Positions 4,574-35,560 of a stretch of 64,000 bases of DNA are shown here, piece after piece. The notes below the pieces were generated by a model, which was not told the DNA's origin, did no database searches, and saw nothing but the letters and a program-made list of their open reading frames with translations. The translations under genes were made by a program, and so were the position numbers. Source of the stretch: an uncultured Alphaproteobacteria bacterium (GTDB taxonomy: Bacteria > Pseudomonadota > Alphaproteobacteria > Rs-D84); assembly GCA_947175875.1 (NCBI GenBank), contig CAMWON010000001.1, positions 81,809 through 145,808 on the forward strand, read 5' to 3'. Positions within the stretch are counted from its first letter, which is position 1. Each line of letters opens with the position of its first letter.

Positions 4574-4870
4574 TTATTTCAGATTTGAAATAAAATCCGG
4601 GAAAGAGTTTTCCTCGTCCGCGTCTTCTTCGGTCTCTTCCGTTGCCGGTGCGGCCGCCGCCTTTTCGGACGGTGTGCGTGTGGAATCGATTTTACCCTGT
4701 TCCGCGGCGACGATACGGCCGTAGTGTTCGGCGGTTTGCATCAGACGTTCGCGCTCGATTTCATCTGCTGTCTGGCGCGCCTGGTCCATGTACTGTTTGC
4801 GCTTTTGACGCCATTTGTGACAACGCTGAATCATCAGTCCGACCGAGGATTGGTTTTTTTTGTTTTGCAT
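4574..4870 (-). CDS. Hypothetical small protein with a basic N-half and an acidic C-terminal tail; lies upstream of and co-oriented with dnaX
   Basis: 98-aa ORF with no recognised motif. Its position suggests co-transcription with dnaX. Confidence 0.4.
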   Translation of the reverse strand: MQNKKNQSSVGLMIQRCHKWRQKRKQYMDQARQTADEIERERLMQTAEHYGRIVAAEQGKIDSTRTPSEKAAAAPATEETEEDADEENSFPDFISNLK

Positions 4871-5041: not shown

Positions 5042-6397
5042 TTGTCCAGGCAAAGCGGAAATTTTTTATTACAGGCCCTGCTGGCATTGTCCCTGATTTT
5101 TGCGTTCATACCATTTTTGGCAGAGCGTCTGGCGGCGCGCGAAACAGACGCCCAGATGTATTCCGCCACGCGCCAGGTTGATGTTGCGGTGACCGCCGCG
5201 CGCATATTCATCCGTGAAAATGCGTCCAATATCGGATATGACCGGACGGTTGTCGCCGGCGCTGATTTCGGTGATTTGCTGGAACCGTACGGCCTGCCGC
5301 TGGGGTTTGTGCCGCGCACGGCCCTGGGCCAGGATATCAGCCTGATTATCAACAAGACCCCGCAGGAGGTGACGGCGTATCTTGAACTGTCGGGCGGAAA
5401 TCTGTCCGCGGTGCGTGCGGCGGAACTGGCGCGTCGCATCGGGTTCTATGCGACGCCGGTCGGTTCTGTTATAAATGTCGGCATCGCCCTGGACGAGGGG
5501 TTTTCCGACGTCGTTCGCCGCAATGAAAATAATCTGGAGGCGGGCGCCTTTTTAACCGACCTGGACATGGGCGGGTTTGTGTTTGACAATGCCGGCGCCG
5601 CAATTGCGCGAACCGGCACGTTTAATACGGCGATGATGAATACTTTGTCCGTCTCGGGAACGGAAAACGGCCGCAAGGTCCGCAACAAGATAGAGAATTT
5701 GTCCGCCACGCGCGCGGTGTTCCAAAGCAAAAGCGGCGAGGCCGCACTGTCGCTGGTTCGCGGAACGTTAACCGCGGACAGTGTCGATGCGCGAACCGTC
5801 GCGCGGTTTGGCGATGCGGGGAATTTCACTGCGGACACCGCGTCCGTGTACGAGTTTTCCATGACGGCGGGCCGTACGGGATTTTCGGGCCCGGGCGCCT
5901 GGAACGTCCGCGGCAACGTCGTGTCCGACAGAATAAATTTCAGTGTGGAGCGCCTGGACGTGTCGTCGTATATAAATGTCGCCCGCGGCCAGGACGTTTA
6001 TATAAATCCCGATGATTTGGAATACAGCGCGCGCAGCGGAATAGAAACCGACACCTTAATCGCATCCAATGTCACGATGCGCGACCAGACGTCCGACGCG
6101 TTGTCGTCTGGCGGGAACGGTGCGGTTGTTATTGACGTCCGCCCGGCCGGAACGTCTTATCTGCCGGACGCATATGTTAACAATGTCGACAACGCCGCGT
6201 TCGAGATTATCGCGGCCCCCGACGACGCGGACGGCAAGACAGTTGACTGCAAGGCGGTCGTGTCACAGCTTGACGGTTCTTATAATCAGCGCAGCCTGTC
6301 GCAGTACATAATATGCCAGTATGTGTATTGGCAGCGGCTGGAAATGCGAATGAACATAATACAGTGTCTAAAGGAAGGCCGCGGTGACTGCATTTAA
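5042..6397 (+). CDS. Large pilin-like protein 1 (451 aa), class III-signal-like N-terminus with Q at mature position 5 (GspK/PilX-like in lacking E5); TTG start
   Basis: N-terminus MSRQSG|NFLLQALLALSLIFAFIPFLAE. The body is Gly/Ala/Thr/Asp-rich. A strong RBS precedes the start. It overlaps the next gene by 14 nt. Confidence 0.55.
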   Translation: MSRQSGNFLLQALLALSLIFAFIPFLAERLAARETDAQMYSATRQVDVAVTAARIFIRENASNIGYDRTVVAGADFGDLLEPYGLPLGFVPRTALGQDISLIINKTPQEVTAYLELSGGNLSAVRAAELARRIGFYATPVGSVINVGIALDEGFSDVVRRNENNLEAGAFLTDLDMGGFVFDNAGAAIARTGTFNTAMMNTLSVSGTENGRKVRNKIENLSATRAVFQSKSGEAALSLVRGTLTADSVDARTVARFGDAGNFTADTASVYEFSMTAGRTGFSGPGAWNVRGNVVSDRINFSVERLDVSSYINVARGQDVYINPDDLEYSARSGIETDTLIASNVTMRDQTSDALSSGGNGAVVIDVRPAGTSYLPDAYVNNVDNAAFEIIAAPDDADGKTVDCKAVVSQLDGSYNQRSLSQYIICQYVYWQRLEMRMNIIQCLKEGRGDCI

Positions 6398-7601
6398 CAA
6401 AGGCGTTTTTGCAGAAGGGTCGCGTGGCGCCGGTTTAACGGAGGCGTTGCTGGCGATGGCGATTGTCGGCATCGCGGCGCCGTTTGTTTACAGCCAGGTT
6501 GCGGCCACCACGCGCAGTGCGGCCGACATTCGGACCGCGTCGCGGATTATCGATATGCGCGGGCCGGCATTGAATTATGTCCGTATGAATGGCGACGCGT
6601 GGCCGGACACGGCCCAGATACGTTTGACGCCCGAAGATTTGGCGCGGATTGCGGACGGCGCCACCGCCGGATTCATAGACAAATATACAGTGTCCGGCGC
6701 CGGTGTTACCGACATATATCTGGCGTTTGATTTGGGGACGGACCGTGTGCGCACGGCGTCCATTGCGCGCAATATCGGAATAGATGCCGCGGTTGTCGGC
6801 GACGACGGTATCGCATACGGTGCGTCGTGGGCCGTAACCGCGCCGGATTTCATGCCGGGCGATTTGATATACAGAATATCTCGTGATGTCACGGGCGAGG
6901 ATACGGCAAAATATTTGCATCGCGGAACATCGGGCGAAGACGGCCTGAATGTCATGCAGCGCGATTTGAACATGGGCGGCCACAACGTCTATGACATCGG
7001 CGGTGTTGTTGCAAAATCCGCCAAGATAAACGGTGCGACCGCCATGTTCGTCGAAACACAAAGTGTTGCGGCCGACGCGGCGTATTTTTCATCGGGCGCC
7101 AATATAGACGGCGGCGTGGCGTCATTGGGCGCGTTGCGCGTGACCGGCGACGTGACGGGCTTTCGCAATATTGTGGCGACGACGCTCAACGGTGCCGGAT
7201 ACACCACGTCGGGTCGTGTGATTACAGACCGCGCAACGGTCACAAATTCGGTCAATGTCGCACGCGATTTGACGCTGAAATCGGACACCACCCGCACAAT
7301 CAGCGGTTTTGACGGCATCACGGCCAGTACTGTTGCGACGCCGTTCATATCCGCGGACGAAATAATTTTTTATGATAATTTTGGACTGACTCTGTCGGGG
7401 GAGCTGTTAATGTCAACGACGGCGCCGCTGAAAATCGGTTCGTGGACATTCCCATCGACAACGCCGCCAAAGTTTTCAAGATTGACACTGTCGCGCGCCG
7501 AATATCCGGCCGCGGTTCGAAAAACGGAATTTGCACCGATAATGCGGCGCGGATGGATGGACGGGCTTATTGAAAATGAAACTGCGCAGAACAATTTTTA
7601 A
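6384..7601 (+). CDS. Large pilin-like protein 2 (405 aa), prepilin-type N-terminus with E5; GTG start after RBS AAGGAAGG
   Basis: N-terminus ...SRG|AGLTEALLAMAIVGIAAPFVYSQ has G-x4-E, a hydrophobic helix and a conserved P-F. It overlaps both flanking genes. Confidence 0.6.
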   Translation: MTAFNKGVFAEGSRGAGLTEALLAMAIVGIAAPFVYSQVAATTRSAADIRTASRIIDMRGPALNYVRMNGDAWPDTAQIRLTPEDLARIADGATAGFIDKYTVSGAGVTDIYLAFDLGTDRVRTASIARNIGIDAAVVGDDGIAYGASWAVTAPDFMPGDLIYRISRDVTGEDTAKYLHRGTSGEDGLNVMQRDLNMGGHNVYDIGGVVAKSAKINGATAMFVETQSVAADAAYFSSGANIDGGVASLGALRVTGDVTGFRNIVATTLNGAGYTTSGRVITDRATVTNSVNVARDLTLKSDTTRTISGFDGITASTVATPFISADEIIFYDNFGLTLSGELLMSTTAPLKIGSWTFPSTTPPKFSRLTLSRAEYPAAVRKTEFAPIMRRGWMDGLIENETAQNNF

Positions 7602-8886
7602 CGGGCCGTCTGAATGTGGCGGCATGCTGGTTGAATTGATGCTCAGCGTTGCGCTGGCCATGATTGTGATACCTTTTGTTTTCAGATATCATCAGCGCGC
7701 TGTCCGTCGTGCCGAAAATATTGCCGTTTCCCGCCAGATGGAGGGGGTGCAAAGCGCGCTGGAACGTTACATTATGGCGCATCGCGATGAATTGCTGGCG
7801 CCGGTTGGTAAAAATATAACACGTGTTGCGCTGGCGGATTTGGTGCCGTTCGGCGTGTCCGAGGATTTGGTCTCCGCCGCCGGTGACAAGTATCAGCTGC
7901 GCGTGCTAAAGGCCGCCGATTTCAACAGCCAGGCGACCCTGCAGGGTGTGGTCGTATTGAATGACGGCGACATCAGTCCGTTGCGCACGCGCGAGATAGT
8001 GAACATCGCCGGCGACCGCGCGGGTTTTCTGGATTCTGGGCGTGCATACGGTGCGTTCGGCACGTGGAACAGTGCGGCACTGGATTTGGGTCTGGGTGAC
8101 GGGGGCGGAATTGTGGAAACGACGTCCGCCCTGCGCGACAATGCAAAATATTTGTGGCGCGTGCCGTCCACGGATGCGTCCGATGCGACGATGCTGTCGG
8201 CGCTGTCGCTGGGCGGGCACGATATCGCGTCGGCGTCTTTCTTTAACAGCCGCAGCGCCCGCTTTGACGAATTGCTGTCCGTGGGTGAAATCGCCGCCGG
8301 CAACATAATTTTTCAAAACAGAACCTCGATTGATAAAAAGTTGAACGCCGTTTCGTCAACCGTGTCGGGCGCGCTGTCATCGGACTCTAAAAATATGGAC
8401 GTCGCAGGTAAGTTTTCATTGGCCGATTTGGGAAAGTTTTCGGGCTTTTCCGTGTCGGACCTGTACGTGACAAACATGACGCTATCCGGTATCAGCGTCA
8501 GTGACACCGGCGATGTCGCATTGCTTAAAATAAACCAGGCGCTGGACATGACGTCGGGTCGTATCGACGCAATGTTTGTGACGGTGGGGTTTGCGGGGTC
8601 CATAACGCCGCGCCTTGTCGTGCGCAATCGTATCGAAGATTCGATAAATTCGTCTTATTACTGGGATGCGTCGCGCGGTGTGGCGAATTTTTCAGACGTA
8701 TCCTTTGCGGAATTGTCGCGTATGGCGCCGCTGGCCCTGGCGCGCGAGGGGCGGGGCACCACGGCCGCGCAAATATTCGGCGCGGTTGCGGCAAACAAGA
8801 ATGCGACGGCGTCCGATTACATGAATGCGATAACGAAAATCCAGGAAGAGGTTCGTAAAAAATATCGCGCCTTGAATTTGCAATGA
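7576..8886 (+). CDS. Large pilin-like protein 3 (~436 aa), prepilin-type N-terminus with E5
   Basis: N-terminus MKLRRTIFNGPSECG|GMLVELMLSVALAMIVIPFVF closely resembles the G|FTLIELMIV consensus. An alternative TTG start lies at 7570. Confidence 0.65.
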   Translation: MKLRRTIFNGPSECGGMLVELMLSVALAMIVIPFVFRYHQRAVRRAENIAVSRQMEGVQSALERYIMAHRDELLAPVGKNITRVALADLVPFGVSEDLVSAAGDKYQLRVLKAADFNSQATLQGVVVLNDGDISPLRTREIVNIAGDRAGFLDSGRAYGAFGTWNSAALDLGLGDGGGIVETTSALRDNAKYLWRVPSTDASDATMLSALSLGGHDIASASFFNSRSARFDELLSVGEIAAGNIIFQNRTSIDKKLNAVSSTVSGALSSDSKNMDVAGKFSLADLGKFSGFSVSDLYVTNMTLSGISVSDTGDVALLKINQALDMTSGRIDAMFVTVGFAGSITPRLVVRNRIEDSINSSYYWDASRGVANFSDVSFAELSRMAPLALAREGRGTTAAQIFGAVAANKNATASDYMNAITKIQEEVRKKYRALNLQ

Positions 8887-8907: not shown

Positions 8908-9420
8908 ATGAAAGCGGTTTGTGATTTTTGCAAGACGGAATACAGCACCCCCGCAGGGGTGCGCGGCCGTGTGCGCTGTGCGGTGTGCGGGTACGAATGG
9001 ATTATATCCCCGGCGGCGCGGCGCGGCGCATGGCTGACGTTTATTGCGGCGGCGACGGCCGCCTTGGCCGCAATAGTGTTTTCAATCGCGGTAATCACCC
9101 GGCACCAGGTCCAGACCGCGGCCGCATCCCGTCCGTTGGTTGCGACGGTCACGGATATTCATTCCGTTATTGATGCGGCGGGCGTTTCTCACTTTGTGGT
9201 ATCGGGCCGCGTTACGAACCAGTCGGCCGAGATATACGGTGTTCCCGATTTGATAATTGTATCTCGTGATGAAAACGGAAACGAGGTTTCGCGTCAAAAG
9301 TTCATGCCGTCGGCAACATTGCTGGATTCCGGCGCCTCGGTTGAATTTTCGCATACCCTGTCCGCTGCGTCGGACGGCGTGAAAAAGATAACCCTGGAAT
9401 TAAAAGACCAAACGGATTGA
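8908..9420 (+). CDS. ZitP-like protein: N-terminal MJ0042-type zinc ribbon (CxxC...CxxC), one TM helix, C-terminal DUF3426-like periplasmic domain
   Basis: The sequence runs CDFCKTEY...RVRCAVCGYEW, then the TM segment WLTFIAAATAALAAIVFSIAVI, then a beta-rich C-terminal domain. This architecture equals Caulobacter ZitP / DUF3426-family proteins. Confidence 0.7.
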   Translation: MKAVCDFCKTEYSTPAGVRGRVRCAVCGYEWIISPAARRGAWLTFIAAATAALAAIVFSIAVITRHQVQTAAASRPLVATVTDIHSVIDAAGVSHFVVSGRVTNQSAEIYGVPDLIIVSRDENGNEVSRQKFMPSATLLDSGASVEFSHTLSAASDGVKKITLELKDQTD

Positions 9421-9422
9421 AA

Positions 9423-9893
9423 ATGAAAAAGATAATATCCTCGTTTGTTTTGTGTGCCGCAATATGCGCCGGTGCGCACGGGGCGGCGACAACGGCGCCC
9501 GCGCCGCGCGTCAGCATTTTTTCCACCAGCACCGACTGGGAGGCTGTAACGGGCCTGTCGCTGCATGAATATCGCGGCAAGTTCAAATATTCCGACAACA
9601 ACAAACTGGTCGGCCGCGGTCTTGTCTTGTATTATCTGGACGGTTTTCCGTGCTATGGCCTGGGCGAAGGGGTTCGCGTATGGCTGGGGCCGCGCGGTGC
9701 CCACGACGGCGAATTGCGCGTTGCATGCGTGCATGCCCCGACCGAGATACGGTTTGCCTGGCGCAATGCGGCCCGTGACGCGGACCAGGCCGCGACCGAA
9801 GGGATTTTGACGTGTCCCGTGACCGGCGACCGTGAATTTACAATTGATTTGTCCCGCTGTACGCGTGGACCTGATTGGGACAGTTACAAATAA
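9423..9893 (+). CDS. Hypothetical secreted protein (signal peptide, 4 Cys)
   Basis: Starts MKKIISSFVLCAAICAGAHGAATTAPAP. Its ATG overlaps the upstream TGA. No recognised domain. Confidence 0.5.
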   Translation: MKKIISSFVLCAAICAGAHGAATTAPAPRVSIFSTSTDWEAVTGLSLHEYRGKFKYSDNNKLVGRGLVLYYLDGFPCYGLGEGVRVWLGPRGAHDGELRVACVHAPTEIRFAWRNAARDADQAATEGILTCPVTGDREFTIDLSRCTRGPDWDSYK

Positions 9894-10858
9894 TGACACA
9901 GTTGCGAGAGTTTATTGTTGATGAATCCGGTGCCGGCGTTCGCCTGGACAAGTTTTTGGCGACCCAAATGCCGGAGTTTTCACGCGCCCAGATTCAGGGC
10001 TTTTCGGCGTGTATCGGCGGCCGCCCGGCCAAGGGGGCGACGCGCCTGCGCGCCGGCGACGCGGTGTCGGTTGAAATTGCGGACGATGACCGCCCCGGCG
10101 ACATTGCGGCCGATAATATATCGCGCGACTTTGACCTGGACATTTTGTTCGAAGACGACGACATCATCGTCGTGAACAAGCCGCGCGGGGTTGTAATGTA
10201 CCCGTCGGCGGGAAACAAGACCGGAACACTGGTTCAGAATATTTTGGCGCACACGCATTTGTCCGCGCTGGGCGGGGCGACGCGTCCCGGCGTTGTTCAC
10301 CGCCTGGACAAGGATACCAGCGGCGTCATGGTGTTCGCAAAATCCGACGCGGCGTTTCGCGGATTGGTTCAGATATTTTCGACGCATGATTTGACGCGCA
10401 AATATGTCGCGTTCGTATGGGGAATTCCGAACTGGACCGGTGCCGACATAACGGGAAATATCGCGCGCTCGTCCCGCAACCGCCAAAAAATGAGCATGGT
10501 AAAAACCGGCGGCCGTCCGGCCCAGACAATTGTGAACGTGATGGATGTCTGGACGCGCGTCGGCGTTTCGGCGTTTCGCTGTACTTTGATGACGGGCCGC
10601 ACGCACCAGATACGCGTCCACCTGTCGGCGCATGGATTCCCGGTCTTGTGCGACCCGGTCTATGGCCGCGGCTCTGCAAGGCTGGGCAGTGTTCGAAACC
10701 CCGAATTGCTGGACTTTATAAAAACGCACAACGGCCAGATGCTGCATGCCGAGGTGTTGGAGTTCACGCACCCCGTCACAGGCGCCGCCATGCATTTCCG
10801 TGCGCCGTTGCCCGACGACATGAGTGAGCTGCGTTGCATACTTGACGATACTGAATAA
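9893..10858 (+). CDS. rluD: RluA/RluD-family 23S rRNA pseudouridine synthase
   Basis: S4-like N-terminal domain plus catalytic motifs (HRLDKDTSGVMVFAK, THQIRVHL). The ATG overlaps the upstream TAA (TAATG). Confidence 0.85.
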   Translation: MTQLREFIVDESGAGVRLDKFLATQMPEFSRAQIQGFSACIGGRPAKGATRLRAGDAVSVEIADDDRPGDIAADNISRDFDLDILFEDDDIIVVNKPRGVVMYPSAGNKTGTLVQNILAHTHLSALGGATRPGVVHRLDKDTSGVMVFAKSDAAFRGLVQIFSTHDLTRKYVAFVWGIPNWTGADITGNIARSSRNRQKMSMVKTGGRPAQTIVNVMDVWTRVGVSAFRCTLMTGRTHQIRVHLSAHGFPVLCDPVYGRGSARLGSVRNPELLDFIKTHNGQMLHAEVLEFTHPVTGAAMHFRAPLPDDMSELRCILDDTE

Positions 10859-10885: not shown

Positions 10886-10913
10886 TTGTCTGAAATTCTT
10901 TTTATGATATAAT
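10886..10913 (+). promoter_or_regulatory. Putative promoter (TTGTCT-16-TATAAT) for the giant Cys-rich protein gene
   Basis: The hexamers were read in the AT-rich intergenic stretch. An RBS (GGAG) precedes the ATG at 10940. Confidence 0.35.
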
Positions 10914-10939: not shown

Positions 10940-13900
10940 ATGAGTCTCTTTAAAAAATCAATTGGTTTTCTGGCTGTTTTGACGGCATTTCCGGCGTCAT
11001 ATGCATTGACGGCACGTCCCAGTGTCATCGGCACCGCGTCGGCGCGTATGCCCACAATGACGGCGCTGATTACAAATACCGGCACGTCCGGCACGGGTTC
11101 CACCACAACATCGACGTTGCTGGCCAATGCCGAATGCATTGACGCATACACGTCTTGTATGAAGGGTGGCGACGCCTGTGGTTCTGATTTTGAAGAGTGC
11201 ACGAACAAGGTTCTGTTCCACGGCAAAATGCCTCAGTGTTTGTCCACTTTGGCCCAGTGCAGCACGGCCGGCGTGACCAGCCTGTTCGGTACCGGCACGG
11301 TAACGGCGCTGTCCACCGTTGCGACCAAGAACAGCTATGGCGAGGTGACGGATTACACATACCCCACAGACGGCAGTGTTCTGGGACAATTGATTATCGG
11401 TGCGGCGATATCGAACAAATATGACACATCCACCTGTGTAAAGCGCTATACGTCTTGCTTAAAGAAAGACAGTGTCTGCGGCAATGATTTTGAACTTTGC
11501 ACAACCGACAAAGAATTTAGAAAACAGCGCGTATTCTGCGATTCCACTTTGGCCCGTTGCCAGTCAGAGGGCCTGATAGAACTGTTCGGCTCCGCCAACA
11601 CTTCGACCACGCCCAACGCGACCAGCCGCATTGGCGAAATGATTGCCGAAGGCGCGGCATTGGCGGCTGTAAACGCGGTATCCACCTGCTACAAGGTTGT
11701 GGACCAGTGTATCTTGAACGCATGTGCGGCGAATCCGTACAAGTGCTTTGAAAACAGCACGAACACCACCGTAAATTTGGTTGAGGCCATCAACACCGGC
11801 GTCGCCACGGCGGAAAACACGGCCGCATCCACAATTGCGAACGTTACATCCGGCATGGATATCGTAACGAAATCCAACGTCGCGTCTTATATCAAGAACA
11901 GCTGTCTGGATACAATCGGATCCAACAAATACTGCTATGCCACGTTTATCGGCAACGGCCAGATGCCGACCGCGTCCCAGCTGAAGGACGAAGACAACCA
12001 GGAAGAAATCTATGACGAGGCGTATTCCGCCCGCATGAGCAGCGCCATGAAGGCCAAGATTTCCGACTTGGTCGATCAGTTTGACACCAAGGCAAAGCAA
12101 AAGTGCACCGAAACAATCAAGACATGCGTAATGCGCGTCTGCGGTTCCGGTTCTGGCGCGGCCTGCTATTCCCAGGTGTTCGGCAATCGTGACAAGTCCA
12201 TTAACAACAGCGTTACATATCCGGAACTGCAGACCGGCTGTGCGGCGGTTGTCAACACCGATGCGTATTGTAAGTATGCCGCGGCAAATCCGAATACAAC
12301 CGGCGGTTATACATATTCTTATATAAACAACGATGCGTTCAGCATTCTGTTCCCGGAATATGAATCCGGCGGCAACGACCCGATTGGCGTTATCTCTGCG
12401 TTGAACGCGACGCTGGCCAACAGCTACAGCGATGCGGCCATCGCCACGATGAAGCGCCAGTGCCAGGCGGTCGCAACCAGTTGCGTAAAATCCATGTGCG
12501 GCGCGGATTATCAGAACTGCTATCGCAACCGTACGGACGTTTATTCTTCTTTGACCAACACCGGCGATTCGTCGTTCGATAAAAGCATGAACAAGGTTGG
12601 CGGCGTTCTGGATTACACAATCGTTTTGGGCCTGTGCCTGGATACGGTTAAGAACGCGTCTGTCTGCGAAGAACATCTGGCGATTGAACGCAACAAATTG
12701 AAAATTGCAAACAACAGCAGTGCGTCCGTATGGGGCGGTGCGAACAGCACGCGCGAAGGCTGGATTGACGCCGGCTCTGCCACGGCCGTGACAGCGACCA
12801 GCGAACAGGTTGCGGCCACCGACGAAAACGGCAATGCGCTGTGCACAACCAAGGGCGGCGGCGACCAGGGCGTATGCTACAGCGTTGATGCCTCCGGCAA
12901 TATTTATGACCAGCCTGTATACATCTCATATACGACATATGTTGAATCACAGGCGGCGTCGACCCTGTTCAAGGATTTGATTTACGACCTTGAGAAAGAG
13001 GCCCAGGCGAAATATAACGCGAAATTGACGAAACAGCAGAACATGTGCATGTCGTCCAACCAGGGTGGCGTTATGGGCAATCGTGAAATGGGCAGCACGT
13101 TCCTGTGGGTAAAGCTGAAATCCAACACGGTGCCAAAGGCATACCCGGTATCGGGTTTAAAGCCGTCGCAGTTCACGGCCAGCAACGACCTGTACGGTTC
13201 ATTCTGCCGTGTCCGCGTAACACTGCAGTCCGATGACAAAAAGATTCAGGACGTTATCGCCAAGGGTACCGATTGGGCCACGGCATATTTCGCGGCGGGT
13301 GATACGTTTACCTGCGGCTCCTGGATTCCGGAAAAAGCCCTGACGCAGTTGGCGGATGCAGTGGCGGCGGATGCCCGCGCGGACGAGGCCCGTGGCAACG
13401 GCAGAACCAAGGCTTGGATGGCTGTTCTGGGAACTGTCGCCGGTGGTGCATTGGGTGGTGTCGCAACCAACAAGATGCAGGACGGCGCATTCTTGGGCGG
13501 ACTTCTGGGAACCACTGGCAGCACTAAAAGTAGTGATGTGGCGGAACAATTGGGTGTGTGTGCTGGTGCTGCACGTGGCTATCAAGATGCAAAATCTGTT
13601 GATGACAAGGCCTCTTATTTGGCTCGTGCATCACGTGCGGTTAAACAACTGCAAGGTGCTGACAAAAATAAATTCGCAACGGATAACATTTCTAGCAAAT
13701 GTGCCAGAGCCACAGATGCAAGAAGTTGTTTAAGTGATTTGTTGTATGCGGCCAGCGTTGCCCATCGGGACTATGCTGATCTTGCTGATAAAACAGTAAC
13801 TGCCGTATCTGGCACTGCACGGGCTACAGAAAAGTCCACAACAGTAAAGAGTTCCGGTCAAGTTTTGACTGCAGATAGCTTGAGAGCACAGGTTCCTCAG

Positions 13901-14515
13901 TATACAAGACATGAATTGGCCGGCGTATCATGCGAATTCAATTGTGATGCAGTTGTTTCTGGCAAATATACTGGTACCAATACAGCGGTCTGCGGAAGTG
14001 TCACACAAAAATCTTGGGTGCCTACAACCGGAAAGTATTGCATGACAGAATCTAATGGTGGAATTCAAAAAGATGCAGATGTACGTTATATTGAATATAC
14101 TTATACTGTATATTACACCGATAATGATGCTGTTGCGTATAATCAAACATTAACAAATAGTGCATCTCAGGTCACTCAACATTCTAATGATGTAGAAACA
14201 GCGCGTAAAAAAGCGAATAGTGCGATGGCTGATTTGGAACAAGCGTGTGATTTAAGCGCACTGAATTCCGACCAGGCTAAGAAAGACGCACAAAAGCGTT
14301 CCATCACAACGGCCGTCGGTGCGGGTGTTGGTGCGATTGCGGGCGGTGTGCTGGCCTATCAGGCGACCAAGAGCATCCAGGATTCCAAACTGGACAGCGT
14401 TGAAAAAGCCGCCTATGACGAATGGATGAACGAAGTCGGTAATCATATCCGTTGCTTTGTCGGTGGCGACGAGGTCGGTATGTACGGCGATATCATCAGC
14501 ACGTCGATGGAGTAA
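10940..14515 (+). CDS. Giant (1191 aa) secreted/membrane-anchored Cys-rich repeat protein of unknown function
   Basis: It has a signal peptide and duplicated CxxYTSC[ML]K...C G[SN]DFE[EL]CT...LFG modules plus further C-x5-C-x3-C motifs. Two glycine-zipper TM-like segments are present (TVAGGALGGVA..., GAGVGAIAGGVLA). A low-GC block lies at 13500-14230. Confidence 0.7.
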   Translation: MSLFKKSIGFLAVLTAFPASYALTARPSVIGTASARMPTMTALITNTGTSGTGSTTTSTLLANAECIDAYTSCMKGGDACGSDFEECTNKVLFHGKMPQCLSTLAQCSTAGVTSLFGTGTVTALSTVATKNSYGEVTDYTYPTDGSVLGQLIIGAAISNKYDTSTCVKRYTSCLKKDSVCGNDFELCTTDKEFRKQRVFCDSTLARCQSEGLIELFGSANTSTTPNATSRIGEMIAEGAALAAVNAVSTCYKVVDQCILNACAANPYKCFENSTNTTVNLVEAINTGVATAENTAASTIANVTSGMDIVTKSNVASYIKNSCLDTIGSNKYCYATFIGNGQMPTASQLKDEDNQEEIYDEAYSARMSSAMKAKISDLVDQFDTKAKQKCTETIKTCVMRVCGSGSGAACYSQVFGNRDKSINNSVTYPELQTGCAAVVNTDAYCKYAAANPNTTGGYTYSYINNDAFSILFPEYESGGNDPIGVISALNATLANSYSDAAIATMKRQCQAVATSCVKSMCGADYQNCYRNRTDVYSSLTNTGDSSFDKSMNKVGGVLDYTIVLGLCLDTVKNASVCEEHLAIERNKLKIANNSSASVWGGANSTREGWIDAGSATAVTATSEQVAATDENGNALCTTKGGGDQGVCYSVDASGNIYDQPVYISYTTYVESQAASTLFKDLIYDLEKEAQAKYNAKLTKQQNMCMSSNQGGVMGNREMGSTFLWVKLKSNTVPKAYPVSGLKPSQFTASNDLYGSFCRVRVTLQSDDKKIQDVIAKGTDWATAYFAAGDTFTCGSWIPEKALTQLADAVAADARADEARGNGRTKAWMAVLGTVAGGALGGVATNKMQDGAFLGGLLGTTGSTKSSDVAEQLGVCAGAARGYQDAKSVDDKASYLARASRAVKQLQGADKNKFATDNISSKCARATDARSCLSDLLYAASVAHRDYADLADKTVTAVSGTARATEKSTTVKSSGQVLTADSLRAQVPQYTRHELAGVSCEFNCDAVVSGKYTGTNTAVCGSVTQKSWVPTTGKYCMTESNGGIQKDADVRYIEYTYTVYYTDNDAVAYNQTLTNSASQVTQHSNDVETARKKANSAMADLEQACDLSALNSDQAKKDAQKRSITTAVGAGVGAIAGGVLAYQATKSIQDSKLDSVEKAAYDEWMNEVGNHIRCFVGGDEVGMYGDIISTSME

Positions 14516-15017: not shown

Positions 15018-16123
15018 TTGTTGTTTTTCTTTGCGTTGTTCAGTCGCAGCTGGCCGCATGCGCTGCCGATGTCCGTGCCGCGTTCGCGACGAATGCGCGT
15101 GTGGATGCCATGCTGGATAAGTGTGTCTTGGAAACGATGAACCGCGTTGCCCGATGGCGATGCGAAATCACGCTCGTCCACCGCGTTCCAGGGTATTAAA
15201 TTTACCATGCAATTTTTGCCATGCAATAGCGTTGCCAATTTTTCCGCATACTCTTCCGTCGCGTTGTATAATTCCGTCTCTCCGTCCGAATTTTTGCGCC
15301 CCAGCAGTATGTATTCAATCATCAACTGGCGGTTGTGCAGATTTGTAAAATCATCGGCCGCGGCCAGAACCTCGCCCAGTTTGTATTTATTGTTAATAGG
15401 CATGATTTGACCGCGCAGTTCGTCCGTCGGCGCGTGCAGCGATATCGCCAGGTTAATCGGCCGCCCCCATTCAATAAGGCGGCGAATGCCCGGTACAATT
15501 CCGCATGTGGAAACCGTAATCCGGCGCCACCCGATGCCTAAATCTTTGTTTGCGCGCTCTATAAAATCAATAACGTTTTCCGTGTTCTGCAACGGTTCGC
15601 CCGTGCCCATGATAACAATGTGCGACACATCGCCGTTGTTTGCATCGCCGTTTGGCCGAACGTTTGTTTTATCGGCACGGTTGCGACGCAGTTCCCATTG
15701 TGCCACCAAAACCTGGGCGAATATTTCATTCGCCGTTAAATTGCGTTTCAGCCCCAGCAGCGTGCTGGCACAGAATCTGCACCCCATGGCGCATCCGGCC
15801 TGAGAGCTCACACATACACTGTTTCCGTATGTTGTCCGCATCAGCACGCATTCAATCTGCTCGCCATCCTGCATTTCCAATAAAAATTTGGTCGTTTCGC
15901 CGTCGCCGGAATCCAGGCGCCGCACAATCTTGCACGGCAATGTCTGGGCCGCGTCGTCCAAATCGCGCCGCAGGTTTTCCGGCAGATTTTTCATCGACGC
16001 AAAATCCGGTGCCCCGCGCCCCAGCCATTCGCGAATTTGGGCCGCACGAAATTTGGGCAGGCCGCGTGCCGTCACAAATTCGGCCAGTTCGGCGTCTGTA
16101 AAATTGAATAAAACGGGTTTCAT
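15014..16123 (-). CDS. rlmN: 23S rRNA (adenine2503-C2)/tRNA methyltransferase RlmN (radical SAM)
   Basis: CxxxCxxC is present (CAMGCRFCAS). The rest matches the RlmN/Cfr family. Confidence 0.92.
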   Translation of the reverse strand: MKPVLFNFTDAELAEFVTARGLPKFRAAQIREWLGRGAPDFASMKNLPENLRRDLDDAAQTLPCKIVRRLDSGDGETTKFLLEMQDGEQIECVLMRTTYGNSVCVSSQAGCAMGCRFCASTLLGLKRNLTANEIFAQVLVAQWELRRNRADKTNVRPNGDANNGDVSHIVIMGTGEPLQNTENVIDFIERANKDLGIGWRRITVSTCGIVPGIRRLIEWGRPINLAISLHAPTDELRGQIMPINNKYKLGEVLAAADDFTNLHNRQLMIEYILLGRKNSDGETELYNATEEYAEKLATLLHGKNCMVNLIPWNAVDERDFASPSGNAVHRFQDTLIQHGIHTRIRRERGTDIGSACGQLRLNNAKKNNK

Positions 16124-16944
16124 AATTTGTACCTGTCGTCATTGATGACAATAACCGCCTTGCGGCGCAGCTGCTTTAACTGCTGGTCGGCGATAAACAT
16201 GGCCTGCTTGAACATGGCGTTTTGTTTGATAATCTTGTCCAGGTCGCCGTATTCTTTTGTTTTTTTCGTCTCGCACACCAACAGGACGGAGTTATCCGCA
16301 CGCGGCGACCATGTTAATTTTGGCAGGCCGGCAACGCGGCTGCGTATGTCGGCGGATAATTCATATTGCATCGCGGTGAATTTCTGGGGGGCGCCGCCCA
16401 ACTTTTCCGCCATTTCCATCGCCGCGTCACAGCTTTTCGGTTTTGTTAATTTTTTTGCGATATCTTCCGGAATGTCTATTAAACGTACAATCGTCATTTC
16501 AATCGGCAGGCCGTGCTCGCGCGCCAGTGCCGTGCGCTCGGCCGCGATATCTTCGTCGTTTGCGGATATAGTCGGCAGTATTGTGCGCGCCACAACAATC
16601 TGCCATGCGATTTCCGCGCGCGCCGCGTTCATTGCCATTTCGCGTTCCGACGCACTCAGGTCGCCCAGATTCATGCGCTTTAATTCTTTCTTTATTTCAT
16701 CGTCCGACGGAACGGCGTTGAAATTCTTCGCATAGTTTAACTTTATGTTGTCGTCAATAATGCTCTGCAGTGCGACGCGTCGGTTGTCTGTTGCGGTGTT
16801 GCCCTGGCGCGCCATTAACTTTACGCGTGCGGTAATGTCGGTGTCCGTAATCGGCTCGCCCCCGACCGACGCGACGACAGTGGCTGCATTTGCGCCCGTC
16901 GCGGCCGCAATCAGCATCAATACTGCACATATTTTTTTCAACAT
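16120..16944 (-). CDS. SurA N-terminal-domain-like periplasmic chaperone (no parvulin domain)
   Basis: Signal peptide MLKKICAVLMLIAAATGANAA. Helical chaperone-domain-like sequence. Its position between lptD and rlmN matches the conserved lptD-surA context. Translationally coupled to rlmN. Confidence 0.6.
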   Translation of the reverse strand: MLKKICAVLMLIAAATGANAATVVASVGGEPITDTDITARVKLMARQGNTATDNRRVALQSIIDDNIKLNYAKNFNAVPSDDEIKKELKRMNLGDLSASEREMAMNAARAEIAWQIVVARTILPTISANDEDIAAERTALAREHGLPIEMTIVRLIDIPEDIAKKLTKPKSCDAAMEMAEKLGGAPQKFTAMQYELSADIRSRVAGLPKLTWSPRADNSVLLVCETKKTKEYGDLDKIIKQNAMFKQAMFIADQQLKQLRRKAVIVINDDRYKL

Positions 16945-16978
16945 TTTGTCCTCTCTTCTTTCCTTGTCTTTTTTGTCT

Positions 16979-18997
16979 TTAATATTGCTGGCCGTCAACG
17001 CTCATACCGATTCTGAACTGATATGTCGTTGTTCCCACATAGTCGTCTTTGATGGAGTTGTCGCGACGGTACTGCAAAGACATGTAATAACATGGGTGGG
17101 TATAGAAAATACCGCCTGTATGACTGTGGAATTCGCCTTCGGTAAAATTATAAATACCGTTCCATTGCAGGGCCCAGCGCTGTGACAGTTTTATTCCTGC
17201 GCCGACTGTCGCCTCGTTTATGTCATCCCCCTGTGTCTGGGCGTCTATAAAGCGCTGTGACCATATGTGGCCCAGTGAGATGTAGTTGGCGCTGGTACCG
17301 ATGCGGCCCGTCGTTTCAATATGGCGCAGCGAGAAATCCTCGCGGTCAACGCGAAAACGCGACGCCATGTCGAACCATTTCATGTTGTTGTATCCGATGC
17401 GGCCGACATAATCCGATGCACCGTTATGAAATCCGCTGTTGGGGTCGGTGTCTGCGCGGTCTTTGAAATCATACGTCTGGCCCAGAAATATCTCAAATGT
17501 ATTTCCGCTGATGTTGTTAAACGCGGCCCAGCGAACACCATAGTCGGCAAAAGTGCCGTTCTCCCACAGGTCCAGTCCGGCAAAGCGCTTGTCTGCGAAC
17601 AGTGTCGCGTCTGATAAAAACGCGCCGGCCGAGTCGTTGTTCAGCGCAAACTGGTCGCGCGACGTGTGTGCCATCGCGGTTATGCGCGCGCGGGGCTCTA
17701 TAACCTGGGACCAAGTGGCGTCCGGCCGATACAGCGGCAGGCCCCATTCCAGATATCCGCTGGGCAGGAATCTGTTTTTCAATCCCGTAAACGTTTCGCC
17801 GGTCACCATGTCCGCATGGTCGAAATTATATACGTCGTATCGCGCGGCCAAACTGGCGGTGATTCTATTGCCGCCCCACAGTGTCCATGGCGATGTTATG
17901 CGCGCATCGCCGATTACGCGCTGTGACGCAGTGCCAGAACCGGATATCCCCAGTACGTCGGCGCCGAATGTCATGTACGTTTCCTCGTATATCGGGGCGG
18001 TCTGCCATACGCCGCGAATGTTGGGCAGTATGTCGCCCGACGGCGTTGAATAGCGTCCGCCGCCACTGCTGCGCAGTTCCTGGAACACATGCGCGTCGGC
18101 GACGACATATCCCGACTGGCCGAACAGTTCCAGGCGCGCGCCGGAATCCAGATACGGCTGGGAATTATAAAATCCGTATTTCTGCAGATATGTTTTGTCG
18201 GACGTACGTTCCAGGAAAATGCTTGCGCGTGCGTATTCGCCCAGCTGAATTACATCGTCGTTGAAAATATGCCAGCGGTTTTCACCGTCCTTGTTTCGTG
18301 TGAACGAACCGCGCGTGCGATACTGCGAATGTTCCGCATTTAAGCGGTGTTCGGCCTTAAACAGCGGGTTTTCCTGGGTCAGGTATGCCAGTGTAACCGT
18401 CATGTCCTGGTATTCCGACAGATAAACATAGAACGGTATGTTTATCATCGTTCCCATTTTGTTGGTCGATTCAAAGTCGGGCATTAAAAATCCGGTCTTG
18501 TGCTTTATGCCCGGGTCCGGCATTTCAAATATCGGAAACCAGAACGCCGGCACGCCGTACACCCAGAAGACGGGATTGTAAAATCGCAGCATTCGCGTCG
18601 CCATATTGTGGCGCACGGTTGTGGCCGATATCGTCCATGCGTCGCCGTATGAATCGCATCCGTCGCATGCGGTAAATGTCGCGTCGCGCGCAATCGTCAA
18701 ATCACCTTCGCGCGTCACGCTTTCCGCATCTACATACACATGCTGGCCCAGCCATATTTTTATGTCGTCGCCGGCCAGTGCGGATCCGTCCTTGGAAATA
18801 TAGCTGTCGCGCAGGGTCATGCGCTGGCCCGACTGATTTATTATTTCTGTTTTGCCGGACGTCTGAATGGATTCTGATTTTATGTCGTATTCGATTTTGT
18901 CCGCGATGATTGTCTTTGGCTGGTCCAAATCAACCGATGCCGCGCGTGCCGCGCTGCATACAATGCCGGATAAAATCATTATACATGCGCGTTTCAT
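16979..18997 (-). CDS. lptD: LPS-assembly protein LptD (OstA/Imp)
   Basis: 672 aa with a signal peptide, an N-terminal OstA-like region and a long aromatic-rich beta-barrel C-terminus. Confidence 0.9.
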   Translation of the reverse strand: MKRACIMILSGIVCSAARAASVDLDQPKTIIADKIEYDIKSESIQTSGKTEIINQSGQRMTLRDSYISKDGSALAGDDIKIWLGQHVYVDAESVTREGDLTIARDATFTACDGCDSYGDAWTISATTVRHNMATRMLRFYNPVFWVYGVPAFWFPIFEMPDPGIKHKTGFLMPDFESTNKMGTMINIPFYVYLSEYQDMTVTLAYLTQENPLFKAEHRLNAEHSQYRTRGSFTRNKDGENRWHIFNDDVIQLGEYARASIFLERTSDKTYLQKYGFYNSQPYLDSGARLELFGQSGYVVADAHVFQELRSSGGGRYSTPSGDILPNIRGVWQTAPIYEETYMTFGADVLGISGSGTASQRVIGDARITSPWTLWGGNRITASLAARYDVYNFDHADMVTGETFTGLKNRFLPSGYLEWGLPLYRPDATWSQVIEPRARITAMAHTSRDQFALNNDSAGAFLSDATLFADKRFAGLDLWENGTFADYGVRWAAFNNISGNTFEIFLGQTYDFKDRADTDPNSGFHNGASDYVGRIGYNNMKWFDMASRFRVDREDFSLRHIETTGRIGTSANYISLGHIWSQRFIDAQTQGDDINEATVGAGIKLSQRWALQWNGIYNFTEGEFHSHTGGIFYTHPCYYMSLQYRRDNSIKDDYVGTTTYQFRIGMSVDGQQY

Positions 18998-20052
18998 TTT
19001 TTATACAGTGCAAATAAAATCCCCGCCAGCGTCGCCAATATAACCGCACCCAACGCAATAAACTGCGTTATGGACGAAACCATGTTTGATGCGGACATAA
19101 ATGTCGCCATTACAACCGCCATTGCGGCCACGGCAATCGCCGGCGCAAAGCTGGCACGGCGCCGCAATAATGAAGAGCGCAACAATATCACTGCGCACAG
19201 CGCCGCCAACACCAGGTTCATTGTCGGTCCGTACAGGCGCGAACACAGTTCCGACAGCACCGCCTTGTGCTGCTTCGGGCTGGGGGCCTCACGCAGGTCG
19301 CGGAAAAGTTCGCGCGTCGGTATGCGGCGCACGCGAAAGCTGCTGCTCATTCCCTTGTCTGCGACATTTAAATCCATGTCAAAGCTTTCAAACGTGCCGA
19401 TGGTTGTTGTACTGCCCGACGCCATCAGCGAACCGTTCGTCATAATAATCGACAGCCCGCGCAGTGTTGACACCAGCTTGCCCTTTTCGGCAAAGATTGT
19501 TATCTGGTTGTCCTCGTCGCGCGTATCCGACAGCATTACCTGTGACAAATCGTGACCGGATACCTTGTCCACGTATACGACCAGGCCGCCCGACATTTCT
19601 GTGAACGCCGCCTCTTGCAGTTTCATGTGTGCCAGACCATAGCGCAGGTTCCACTGGGTGTCGTAAAAGTTTCCCTGGGACGCGGGCACAATCCACAGGT
19701 TTAACGCAAAGTGCACCACGGTTAAAATCGTCGCCATAATCAATGCCGGCCGCGCCAGTTGCCCCGGCGACAGGGTTGACGCCGCCATAACAGTGATTTC
19801 ATTGTCTGAAATCATCTTGTTATATACCGATATCACGGCGATAAATGTCACGAACGGAATAATAATGGAAACGATAAAAGGCACCATTAACATGGTCAGG
19901 CCCAAAAAGTTCGTCAACTGTATCCCGTAATTTAGCAGAAATTTCATCATCGACATAATCTGCACCATCCAGGCCAGCCCAGTCAGAACCAGCAGCAGCA
20001 TAATGAATATCATCGCCAGCTGGCGCAAAAAATATCGGTTTATAATCTTCAT
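18994..20052 (-). CDS. lptG: LPS export ABC permease, LptF/LptG family (probably LptG given adjacency to lptD)
   Basis: N-terminus MKIINRYFLRQ with six TM segments, matching the YjgP/YjgQ family. ATGA overlap with the lptD start. Confidence 0.8.
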   Translation of the reverse strand: MKIINRYFLRQLAMIFIMLLLVLTGLAWMVQIMSMMKFLLNYGIQLTNFLGLTMLMVPFIVSIIIPFVTFIAVISVYNKMISDNEITVMAASTLSPGQLARPALIMATILTVVHFALNLWIVPASQGNFYDTQWNLRYGLAHMKLQEAAFTEMSGGLVVYVDKVSGHDLSQVMLSDTRDEDNQITIFAEKGKLVSTLRGLSIIMTNGSLMASGSTTTIGTFESFDMDLNVADKGMSSSFRVRRIPTRELFRDLREAPSPKQHKAVLSELCSRLYGPTMNLVLAALCAVILLRSSLLRRRASFAPAIAVAAMAVVMATFMSASNMVSSITQFIALGAVILATLAGILFALYKK

Positions 20053-20216
20053 CACGCCCAGTATAAAGCGCAAAAAGAAACGCGTCAAATTTTTCTTGCG
20101 TTTTCTCGATTCGGGCTCCATAATACAAATGTTCTTAAAAGTTTTTTAAGGGCGGGGTTGAAAAACCCCGCTCTTATCGTAAGAAGGCATCATAAAACAA
20201 CATAAGGAGAAAACGA

Positions 20217-28944: not shown

Positions 28945-29779
28945 ATCAGAAACGAGGATAAGAAAATTACGCATCGCGCGCATTTTGACGGCGTCGCTGG
29001 TCTGTGCCGTGTTGACCGGGCCGGCACTGGCCGACGATGGCTGCGAGAACGAGTCCAATGACCGTATCGCACCGGAATTGGCATTGTGCAGTGTTCATGC
29101 ATATAACATCGGCATATCCACAAACCCGGCCGGCGCAGACAAGCAGCTGATGAAGGAAATCGTCGCGCTGAAAACCACCATTATCACCCAGCAGATGAAT
29201 AAACAATACGAATACATGGATGCCATGATTCGCCGCTTTAAGACCCAGCTGGAAAAAGCGGTTCTGACGACCAAGCTCCAGGCGGCCGGTGCCGCGCCGA
29301 CCAATACTGGGGGCTCTTCATCGTCCGGCGGGTCTTCTTATGGCGGCTCCGGCGGGAGTGGTGGCGGCCGCGCCAACAACGGCCTGGCCAATGCCGAAGA
29401 CTGTATGAACTCATATACGAATTATTCGGATACGTATCAGTGTCTGTTGCGCAATGTCGCAAAAATATCGTCTGCGGTGACATCGGGCGATTTGGGAATG
29501 GCGCGTCGCCAACTGGCCACCGATTTGACAACATTGGGCAGTTATAACCGTTTGGCCATAAGCTGTGGCCAGAATCAACAGAATTGCAGCGTGAACGTGC
29601 CGTGTCAGAACGCATTGTCGGAAAAAGATGCCAATGGTAAAAATACAACATGTGCAACCGCCAAAAGCAGTGGCGGCCGTCGTGACGATATCACCGCGTG
29701 TATCGGCCAGATGCGCGCATGTATTGTTGCAAATAACGAGGCTTTGTCGAATAATTCGAACCAGCAGTCACGCCCGTAA
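28925..29779 (+). CDS. Secreted protein with a Gly/Ser-rich linker and a Cys-rich C-terminus; start uncertain (GTG 28925/28931 or TTG 28985)
   Basis: Signal-like ...RKLRIARILTASLVCAVLTGPALA then DDGCENE. GGSSSSGGSSYGGSGGSGGG linker. 11 Cys in total. Confidence 0.5.
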   Translation: MFVFSDKSETRIRKLRIARILTASLVCAVLTGPALADDGCENESNDRIAPELALCSVHAYNIGISTNPAGADKQLMKEIVALKTTIITQQMNKQYEYMDAMIRRFKTQLEKAVLTTKLQAAGAAPTNTGGSSSSGGSSYGGSGGSGGGRANNGLANAEDCMNSYTNYSDTYQCLLRNVAKISSAVTSGDLGMARRQLATDLTTLGSYNRLAISCGQNQQNCSVNVPCQNALSEKDANGKNTTCATAKSSGGRRDDITACIGQMRACIVANNEALSNNSNQQSRP

Positions 29780-31111: not shown

Positions 31112-31951
31112 TTATGCCGCGAATTTAAGAAGCCGGTCGTCGTTTGCAATAACGGCATATCGATTGCGAATAAATATGCGGCGATATAAAGGCCGGCCGT
31201 TTAGTATCACCCCTGTTTTTGTCGTTGTAAAATCTTTGTCCATCCCCAGTACTTCAAATTTATCGGAATCGTAATCCAGCAAAAATGTAACGGGCACCCC
31301 CATTATTCCTGTATAGTCCGTCGGTATTTCTTTTATCTTGTTAACATTTATCGCATCGGCGTTATCGTATTTTGGATAATGTGCTTCATGCCCGTAATAT
31401 CGGCTGTGCGGCGCGCGGGCATTCTTTTTGCGATTTGTCGCCAGATTTGTGAACCAGCATATGTTGCCAAACTTTTTTAAGCGCCCGTCGGGATGTATAA
31501 ATACTCTGGGATACGTGCAGCCGGTGCGCACCTTGTTGGCGCGTATCAAAGAAAATGTCTGTTCGTATGCGACGGCGTTCATGTTTCCGATAATCAAAAA
31601 ACGTTTGTCATGCGCGGCCAGCAGGTCCATAAATTCCCGAAACAAGGAAAAAGGCGGATTTGTGACGATGACGTCCGCCCGTTTCAGCAATTCAACCGAT
31701 GCCGCACTGCGAAAGTCATCCCCGCCCCGGCCGCCGCTGAACCACACGTCACGGATTTTGCCGGCGGCCTTTAATTCCATAAAGTATTTCACAAACGCAC
31801 TGTCCGCGGTGTCACAGTTGCAATAAATGGTCTTATTAAAAAAATGCGACAGGTAATTGTCGCATTCTTTCCGTACATCCTCGTAACGCGTATAAAATTC
31901 GTCATTTTTGACCGCGCGGGCCCGGTGCAAGTTTGCGCTTTTTGCTGACAT
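31112..31951 (-). CDS. Orphan N6-adenine DNA methyltransferase of the EcoRI-methylase-like family
   Basis: N-terminal KNDEFYTRYEDV motif and catalytic IVTNPPFS (D/N-PP-F) motif. GC is lower than neighbouring genes. No adjacent restriction endonuclease. Confidence 0.65.
   Translation of the reverse strand: MSAKSANLHRARAVKNDEFYTRYEDVRKECDNYLSHFFNKTIYCNCDTADSAFVKYFMELKAAGKIRDVWFSGGRGGDDFRSAASVELLKRADVIVTNPPFSLFREFMDLLAAHDKRFLIIGNMNAVAYEQTFSLIRANKVRTGCTYPRVFIHPDGRLKKFGNICWFTNLATNRKKNARAPHSRYYGHEAHYPKYDNADAINVNKIKEIPTDYTGIMGVPVTFLLDYDSDKFEVLGMDKDFTTTKTGVILNGRPLYRRIFIRNRYAVIANDDRLLKFAA

Positions 31952-34059: not shown

Positions 34060-35560
<1,501 letters not shown>

Follow-up and report, generated by a model that had tools for sequence, protein, structure and literature searches.

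A compact ZitP-class zinc-ribbon membrane protein encoded beside pilin-like genes in Rs-D84 alphaproteobacteria

The stretch of DNA described here (the window) comprises 64,000 nucleotides, positions 81,809 to 145,808 of contig CAMWON010000001.1 in GenBank assembly GCA_947175875.1, from an uncultured alphaproteobacterium of the Rs-D84 lineage. At 8908..9420 on the forward strand it contains a gene for a protein of 170 residues that lies directly behind three large pilin-like genes. In an initial annotation the protein was likened to Caulobacter ZitP, in which a zinc ribbon binds PopZ and a DUF3426 domain recruits CpaM (PMC5182065, PMC5182063), and its placement was taken to mean that the cluster is related to pili and possibly polar. 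The locus raises the questions of whether the resemblance to ZitP reflects homology and of what the neighboring genes indicate about function. The product of the gene is a bitopic inner-membrane protein of the ZitP class, and in the Rs-D84 clade the gene is part of a tightly packed string made up of three paralogous PilV/Shufflon_N-like genes, the 170-residue gene, a gene for a small secreted protein (designated p156), and rluD.

The gene begins with an ATG codon, and the N terminus of its product, MKAVCDFCKTEYSTPAGVRGRVRCAVCGYEW, includes four cysteines in the arrangement C5-x2-C8 and C24-x2-C27 (CxxC-X15-CxxC). With 25 homologs as input, AlphaFold2 gave a model that has a mean predicted local distance difference test score (pLDDT) of 86 and comprises three parts: four short β-strands (residues 2–33) that correspond to the zinc ribbon, a helix (residues 39–74), and six β-strands (residues 77–165). 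The four-cysteine ribbon (residues 1–33; 8908..9006) includes W31, which lies four residues past the last cysteine. The helix includes a hydrophobic core (about residues 42–64; 9031..9099), WLTFIAAATAALAAIVFSIAVIT, that provides the single transmembrane (TM) segment between the ribbon and the C-terminal domain, and the latter (residues 77–165; 9136..9402) is a DUF3426/FxLYD-like β-sandwich with a pLDDT of ~90. The analogy with ZitP, together with the lack of a signal peptide, suggests a topology in which the ribbon is cytoplasmic and the sandwich is periplasmic. The translation and the model agree with the architecture first described for this open reading frame (ORF): a zinc ribbon, one TM helix, and a C-terminal domain rich in β-structure. 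A Foldseek comparison of the model with the PDB matched only generic immunoglobulin-like sandwiches (DUF1425, ApaG, and the carbohydrate-binding domain of Wzt; E ≥ 2e-3), which are uninformative on function.

Conservation rules out a chance ORF at 8908–9420. A word-indexed search found 411 homologs (E ≤ 1e-3), an exhaustive search of 1.8 billion cluster representatives returned 731 at the same threshold, and relatives of the gene are present in 129 species-level genomes. C5, C8, C24, C27, and W31 are invariant in an alignment of 25 sequences with 54–87% identity. The source annotations of the homologs read "zinc-ribbon domain-containing," "FxLYD domain-containing," or "hypothetical," and no literature on a compact short form of ZitP was found. 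In the exhaustive search, short forms of ~150–196 residues came first (E below ~1e-10), followed by proteins of 200–330 residues in which the ribbon and the C-terminal domain were matched separately (E 1e-10 to 1e-6). The short forms constitute a compact subfamily (~155–180 residues) whose hosts are alphaproteobacteria with reduced genomes from animal and termite guts, namely Rs-D84/Candidatus Enterousia and relatives.

The domain assignments stand at the level of the family and its profile only, the single sequence from the window being under every curated cut-off: with the window protein alone, Pfam DUF3426 scored 15.2 bits (E 0.022; cut-off 27.7), Pfam Zn_ribbon_4 scored 14.4 bits (E 0.038; cut-off 30.3), NCBIfam FxLYD_dom scored 19.6 bits (cut-off 23), and TIGR02098 gave no match at E ≤ 0.1. 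Among the 25 family members, Zn_ribbon_4 matched all 25 (best E 7e-8), FxLYD_dom matched 23 (best E 6e-6), and TIGR02098 and DUF3426 each matched 22 (best E 2e-7 and 1e-4, respectively). The original expectation that the ribbon would belong to TIGR02098 and the C-terminal domain to DUF3426 fails for the window protein at these thresholds, but both models match most of its relatives and, for DUF3426, the profile-level alignment described below covers the whole domain.

When the family profile was compared with PDB sequences, the best match was the zinc finger of Caulobacter ZitP (2nb9, E 0.0049), with W35 of ZitP aligned to W31, and the zinc ribbon of Myxococcus GltJ was next (7zok, E 0.0057). 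Alignment of the short-form family with 14 canonical alphaproteobacterial proteins by hhalign gave a probability of 99.8% (E 2.5e-28) over 170 columns that span both domains; all 14 of these longer proteins matched Zn_ribbon_4, Zn_ribbon_5, and DUF3426 at E ≤ 0.01. Longer relatives that carry names include a Polycladidibacter protein of the MJ0042 type and an alphaproteobacterial "DUF3426 domain-containing protein," and the short-form sandwich retains the core motif of DUF3426, G-x-[VI]-x-N ... [VI]P. Because the family profile matches the ZitP zinc finger best among PDB sequences and the canonical proteins align over both domains, the sequence comparisons indicate that the 170-residue protein is a homolog of the ZitP class in both of its domains and does not merely resemble it, which bears out the relationship originally proposed from the architecture.

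In ZitP, the zinc ribbon has the form CXXC-X19-CXXC, and W35 and a basic patch consisting of K18, R24, R27, and R34 are needed for PopZ binding; the TM segment is at residues 106–127, the DUF3426 domain that recruits CpaM is at residues 128–245, and the R93/A94 region is needed for pilus function (PMC5182065, PMC5182063). The short form resembles Caulobacter crescentus ZitP (CCNA_02298; the nuclear magnetic resonance structure of its zinc finger is 2nb9) in having an MJ0042-type CxxC...CxxC ribbon from residue 1, a Trp four residues past the last Cys, a basic residue just before the third Cys in most of its members, a single TM segment, a DUF3426-type sandwich (predicted to be periplasmic here), and an alphaproteobacterial host. 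As noted initially, it is short, with 170 residues as compared with the 245–311 residues reported for ZitP. The spacing between the cysteine pairs is X15 in 82 of 82 short forms, in contrast to X19 in the two canonical proteins that were fetched. The cytoplasmic linker is absent, so that the TM segment starts at about residue 42 instead of 106: only ~8 residues separate it from the ribbon, as compared with the ~65-residue linker that holds R93/A94 in ZitP, and hhalign places a 36-column gap in the short form opposite the canonical cytoplasmic linker. Relative to the canonical proteins, the short form has a zinc-knuckle loop that is 4 residues shorter and lacks a ~40–60-residue linker plus a juxtamembrane periplasmic segment, and the window protein departs from the class in that both of its domains score under the Pfam cut-offs. 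The determinants of PopZ binding are shared in part: W31 and the cysteines are kept and the R27 equivalent is Lys or Arg in 70 of 84 sequences, but the equivalents of R24 and R34 are not maintained and the spacing is X15, not X19. The equivalent of K18 is unmappable in the short forms owing to the 4-residue deletion.

The zinc ribbon of Myxococcus xanthus GltJ/AgmX (7zok) belongs to the same family, has an equivalent profile score, and is likewise N-terminal on a membrane protein (cytoplasmic in GltJ, predicted to be so here). It serves as the cytoplasmic switch of an envelope-spanning motility machine, with a different ligand and in an organism without PopZ (PMC11135422). GltJ is deltaproteobacterial and differs from the short form in having a long linker, a GYF domain, other periplasmic parts, and Ile in the place of the Trp that follows the last Cys; its ligands are MglB and its own linker and do not include PopZ. 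Because the ribbon of GltJ, with another ligand and no PopZ, scores as well as that of ZitP, PopZ binding is not inferable from the sequence. The three-part architecture and the core motif are also shared with generic DUF3426 (PF11906)/FxLYD (NF038353) zinc-ribbon membrane proteins of Proteobacteria, from which the short form is set apart as a separate subfamily that is tightly conserved and has a gene context of its own. To our knowledge, none of these generic proteins has a known function except ZitP.

The gene context was followed through related loci, which are designated by L numbers where they need to be told apart. The core clade comprises 83 loci with 49–98% identity in which the order is a gene of 98 codons on the opposite strand, pilin-like genes 1–3 (the triad), the short-form gene, p156, and rluD; this order is invariant wherever the contig allows it to be seen. 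In L087 and L093 (~29% identity) the string of triad, short-form gene, p156, and rluD is the same and the outer flanks differ. In L089 (~21% identity) the short-form gene is followed directly by rluD, p156 is absent beside it, and the triad, with the same internal gene order, lies on the other strand at a distance of 3 kb, beyond lpxB and lpxA-like genes. In L091/L092 and L096 (35% identical to each other) the order is lptFG, lptD, a surA-like gene, the short-form gene, a p156 homolog, and rluD, with no triad within 8 kb; in L091 the short-form gene overlaps the surA-like gene by 4 nucleotides. A metagenome scan with the P0222 subgroup added one extra locus. The two canonical ZitP-like genes that were examined have other neighbors, L094 lying beside an ABC (ATP-binding cassette) ATPase and a response regulator and L095 among ribosomal and tRNA-synthetase genes, and neither is near pilin-like genes or rluD, unlike the short-form genes with their PilV-like genes, p156, and rluD.

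The linkage of a zitP-type gene to pilin-like genes that was suggested by the window is found in 83 of 83 related loci and in L087 and L093, is loosened in L089, and is absent within 8 kb in L091, L092, and L096; as a general trait of ZitP proteins it is not supported by the two canonical genes. The link to the triad is real and older than the core clade. The deepest association is that with rluD, which, in all of the full-length short-form loci examined whose contigs extend far enough, is downstream of the short-form gene, together with that with p156, which is found in all divergent lineages examined except L089 and is, apart from rluD, the neighbor kept furthest among the relatives (it is present in L087, L093, L091, L092, and L096). 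In the window, surA-like, lptD, and lptFG genes are at 16120–20121 on the reverse strand, ~6–10 kb downstream of the 170-residue gene. The same block is directly upstream of the short-form gene in L091 (3997–8004) and L096 (3733–7944). These positions suggest an ancestral order of lptD, surA-like gene, zinc-ribbon gene, p156, and rluD that was later rearranged.

Within the window, the third pilin-like gene ends at 8886, which confirms the 21-nucleotide gap first reported in front of the 170-residue gene, and from gene 1 through rluD every gap or overlap is 21 nucleotides or less. The p156 gene (9423..9893, forward strand) has its ATG 2 nucleotides past the stop codon of the 170-residue gene; a mechanically called ORF that starts with TTG at 9417 overlaps the latter by 4 nucleotides. 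It encodes a small (156-residue) secreted Cys-containing protein of no known family with a signal-peptide-like N terminus and is present in 83/83 loci. The 645 homologs of p156 are unnamed lineage-specific proteins with no Pfam match, and comparison with PDB sequences yielded only marginal C-type-lectin matches (E ~0.3) that were not used. The next gene, rluD (9875..10858, forward strand; likely ATG start at 9893), encodes an RluA-family 23S rRNA pseudouridine synthase (TIGR00005, E 6e-70; PF00849). A scan for promoters and terminators gave a number of sites no higher than in shuffled sequences and no terminator between gene 3 and the 170-residue gene. The site that scored best as a promoter in this region, at 10886–10913, is just upstream of a gene for a 1191-residue protein (10940..14515, forward strand), which, to judge from this site, probably has its own promoter; the protein belongs to no family except for a weak C-terminal glycine-zipper/OsmB-like match, and its position is kept in 65/83 loci. 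The divergent conserved 98-codon gene upstream of the triad (4574..4870, reverse strand) is found in 75/83 loci and has a homolog downstream of rluD in L091/L092.

The genes of the triad are all on the forward strand and overlap one another slightly: gene 1 (5042..6397) encodes 451 residues, gene 2 (6384..7601) encodes 405 residues, and gene 3 (7570..8886) encodes 438 residues from a TTG codon. Gene 1 is syntenic in 80/83 loci, the other three contigs ending first, and gene 3 is syntenic in 83/83. The N termini contain, on either side of the boundary between positions -1 and +1, SG and NFLLQALLAL...PF in gene 1, RG and AGLTEALLAMAIV...PF in gene 2, and CG and GMLVELMLSVAL...PF in gene 3. Genes 2 and 3 are paralogous (27% identity over 235 residues, E 8e-9), and gene 1 is similar to them at the N terminus. 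A Gly at -1, Glu or Gln at +5, a hydrophobic run, and P(+18)F(+19) are in register in all three paralog families; the +5 residue of gene 1 is Gln in the core clade and Glu in L089, and in gene 2 G15, E20, and P33 are invariant in 20 orthologs. Alignment of orthologs and paralogs also shows that the C terminus of gene 1 is rich in cysteine.

None of the three triad proteins of the window was matched in a Pfam scan, and the Pfam N_methyl hidden Markov model had one weak match (E 0.15) among 18 sequences. The gene 1 ortholog of L089 passes Pfam Shufflon_N (PilV) with 29.5 bits (cut-off 27.5) at residues 53–226, and the gene 3 ortholog of the same locus scored 24 bits (E 3e-5) with the same model. 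Weak NCBIfam matches of the triad set include GspG (the best, E 3.4e-4), GspK, GspH, ComGE, and prepilin-peptidase-dependent proteins, and those of gene 2 are to pseudopilin families; neither the gene 2 family profile nor the L089 gene 1 ortholog had a match among PDB sequences. The AlphaFold2 model of gene 2 has a long N-terminal helix (residues 18–56) and an α/β domain (residues 59–167) with a pLDDT of 70–89, followed by a C-terminal half that is unreliable. The triad proteins are like PilV-type minor pilins of type IVb pili (Shufflon_N, PF04917) in having G(-1), E(+5), a hydrophobic helix, and a length of 400–500 residues. TcpB and CofB, which are large minor pilins of type IVb pili, have a comparable length. 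Differences from PilV-type pilins are the +1 residue, which is Asn, Ala, or Gly instead of Phe or Met, and the Gln at +5 of gene 1, and, unlike in PilV systems, there is no shufflon, pilus ATPase, platform protein, prepilin peptidase, or secretin nearby. With in-register N termini, the Shufflon_N match, and the weak pseudopilin matches, the triad was credibly called pilin-like at the outset, and the label appears reasonable but not fully proven.

Two further sequence features of the triad were observed. A motif, YL-R-x(8-10)-N/T-M-x(3)-L-x-M-G-G-x-x-[IV], is common to all three proteins, also in L089 (585–4774), and is near the end of the Shufflon_N-matching segment (residues 53–226) in the latter. 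Orthologs of gene 1 have a conserved C-terminal segment with four cysteines, DCK...IICQY...IQCL...GDC, that is reminiscent of pilin disulfide regions.

The related loci are from metagenome-assembled genomes titled Candidatus Enterousia, Alphaproteobacteria, or Rickettsiales, from animal guts, rumen, and in some cases apparently termite gut. Enterousia belongs to the order Rs-D84, the genomes of which are mostly <1 Mb, lack flagella, and are from organisms thought to depend on partner cells (PMC12306168). No CpaM-like gene (TM segment plus CE4 polysaccharide deacetylase) and no Tad/Cpa pilus genes were found in the window or in the 20-kb loci. A search of the six frames of the window with regular expressions for the N- and C-terminal motifs of PopZ returned nothing, although this is a weak test. 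A ParA-like gene at 39034–40158 was considered as a CpaE/TadZ candidate and rejected; it encodes a generic partition-type ATPase and lies after the rRNA operon. In some relatives, a gene for a VirD4/TraG-like coupling protein of a type IV secretion system is within 6–9 kb of the cluster (L002, 18575–20501; L093, 262–2481), which fits a Rickettsiales-like type IV secretion system in the lineage.

The reading that we favor, with middling confidence, is that the 170-residue protein is a compact TM adaptor of the ZitP class. Acting as ZitP and Myxococcus GltJ do, it would dock through the zinc ribbon, with its conserved Trp face, on a cytoplasmic landmark or regulator, for which PopZ is the obvious, unverified candidate; its DUF3426 sandwich would recruit or position periplasmic partners, p156 first and the PilV-like proteins in those lineages in which the triad is adjacent, and a pilin-like surface or attachment structure would in this way be set at a defined site of the envelope. 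Several observations weigh against this proposal. On the side of the ribbon, the R24 equivalent is basic in 2 of 84 sequences and the R34 equivalent in 5 of 84, the zinc loop is 4 residues shorter, and the Trp is replaced by Phe or missing in several distant short forms outside the core clade. On the side of the pilin-like partners, structural support for a pilin fold is weak, as the gene 2 model has a mean pLDDT of 53 and its best pilin-related Foldseek match, the XcpGHIJK pseudopilus, has a probability of 0.66 and an E of ~1; there is no gene for PopZ, CpaM, a prepilin peptidase, a pilus ATPase, a platform protein, or a secretin within the 64-kb window; and in a published survey of Rs-D84 genomes, type IV pili are reported for a different lineage only (PMC12306168). 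The link to the triad is not universal, and the adjacency could reflect a gene order peculiar to one clade, whose genomes are highly syntenic in any case, because the triad is displaced in L089 and absent within 8 kb in L091, L092, and L096, and the housekeeping genes dnaX and rluD are kept in the same positions too.

A more tentative explanation is that the protein is an accessory of envelope or outer-membrane biogenesis, the unit being the 170-residue gene and p156 from an lptD/surA-like/rluD neighborhood and the triad a later upstream insertion in the Rs-D84 branch that has no direct bearing on their function. It would account for rluD being adjacent or nearly so wherever the contig reaches, for the retention of p156 in all divergent lineages examined but L089, for the position directly after the lptFG, lptD, and surA-like string in L091, L092, and L096, for the presence of such genes only ~6–10 kb downstream in the window, and for the location of the two canonical DUF3426 proteins among housekeeping genes; it is at odds with the contiguity of the triad and the gene in three separately diverged groups with different flanks (the core clade, L087, and L093), with a triad that is still within 3 kb in L089, and with the action of ZitP, the only experimentally studied relative of the class, on a pilus system (PMC5182063). 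That the protein is a strict ortholog of ZitP, with a ribbon that binds PopZ and a DUF3426 domain that recruits a CpaM-like deacetylase so that a Tad/Cpa-type pilus is placed at the pole, seems unlikely to us. In its favor, no PDB sequence matches better than the zinc finger 2nb9, the W35 of which is aligned with the invariant W31, the R27 equivalent is Lys or Arg in 70/84, the nearest longer relatives are alphaproteobacterial ZitP-like proteins, and orthologs of ZitP and PopZ have been reported in Rickettsia (PMC5182065). However, the spacing is X15 instead of X19 and the R24 and R34 equivalents are non-basic, and R24A/R27A abolishes PopZ binding in Caulobacter (PMC5182065); the linker with the R93/A94 region required for pilus function is absent (PMC5182063); the ribbon of GltJ reaches the same score as that of ZitP without being a PopZ binder (PMC11135422); the window contains no genes for PopZ or CpaM and no cpa genes; and the pilin-like genes next to the 170-residue gene resemble PilV/Shufflon_N (type IVb) and not the Flp/Tad type. 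A membrane-anchored, zinc-binding signaling protein of the anti-sigma type, with a cytoplasmic zinc domain, a TM segment, and an extracytoplasmic sensor, is very improbable: the overall topology does resemble that of membrane anti-sigma factors, and 10 of the 25 members of the family give weak NCBIfam anti-sigma matches (best E 0.0073), but these are far under the cut-off (13.5 as compared with 100 bits) and lie over the TM region, no gene for an extracytoplasmic function sigma factor is adjacent in any locus, and the ribbon is of the MJ0042/ZitP type, not zf-HC2. We have rejected identity as an anti-sigma factor on the position of the matches and the lack of an adjacent sigma gene.

Several other features lie elsewhere in the window. 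A gene of the EcoRI_methylase family (279 residues) is beside one for a 444–493-residue protein without a family at 31112–33585 on the reverse strand, just upstream of the rRNA operon, and the two may be a restriction-modification pair. The rRNA operon is complete (34059–38975) and contains 16S, tRNA-Ile, 23S, and 5S genes; tRNA-Ile was the only tRNA detected in the spacer, with no tRNA-Ala. Large ORFs of 633, 298, 695, and 445 residues without Pfam or NCBIfam assignment are at 27043–29779, 44215–46302, and 53052–54389. The 445-residue ORF is within the mraY-ftsW-murG cell-wall cluster, where it occupies what is presumably the position expected for murC.

A more far-reaching extension of the adaptor proposal, which we regard as doubtful, is that the string encodes an undescribed minimal surface-attachment apparatus of the obligately partner-dependent, sub-megabase gut bacteria of Rs-D84, composed of three giant pilin-like proteins of the PilV kind, a ZitP-like adaptor without a linker, and a small Cys-rich secreted protein. 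The adaptor would replace the usual multi-protein alignment and localization machinery by directly coupling a cytoplasmic landmark to a tip or adhesin complex of pilin-like proteins, perhaps with no canonical type IV pilus motor.

Within the widespread class of zinc-ribbon/TM/DUF3426 proteins, only ZitP has been studied, and the partner of a DUF3426 domain is known only in Caulobacter, where it is CpaM. The compact subfamily is a naturally minimized protein of this type that has been retained in genomes of ~900 genes, consistently beside a small secreted protein and mostly beside PilV-like genes too, and the gene order names candidate partners of both domains. No organelle of motility or attachment is recognized in the Rs-D84 bacteria, which are thought to depend on other cells. 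If the link to the triad is functional, it would point to an attachment device of Rs-D84; if it is not, the association with p156, rluD, and lptD-surA would suggest a role in envelope biogenesis for DUF3426 proteins.

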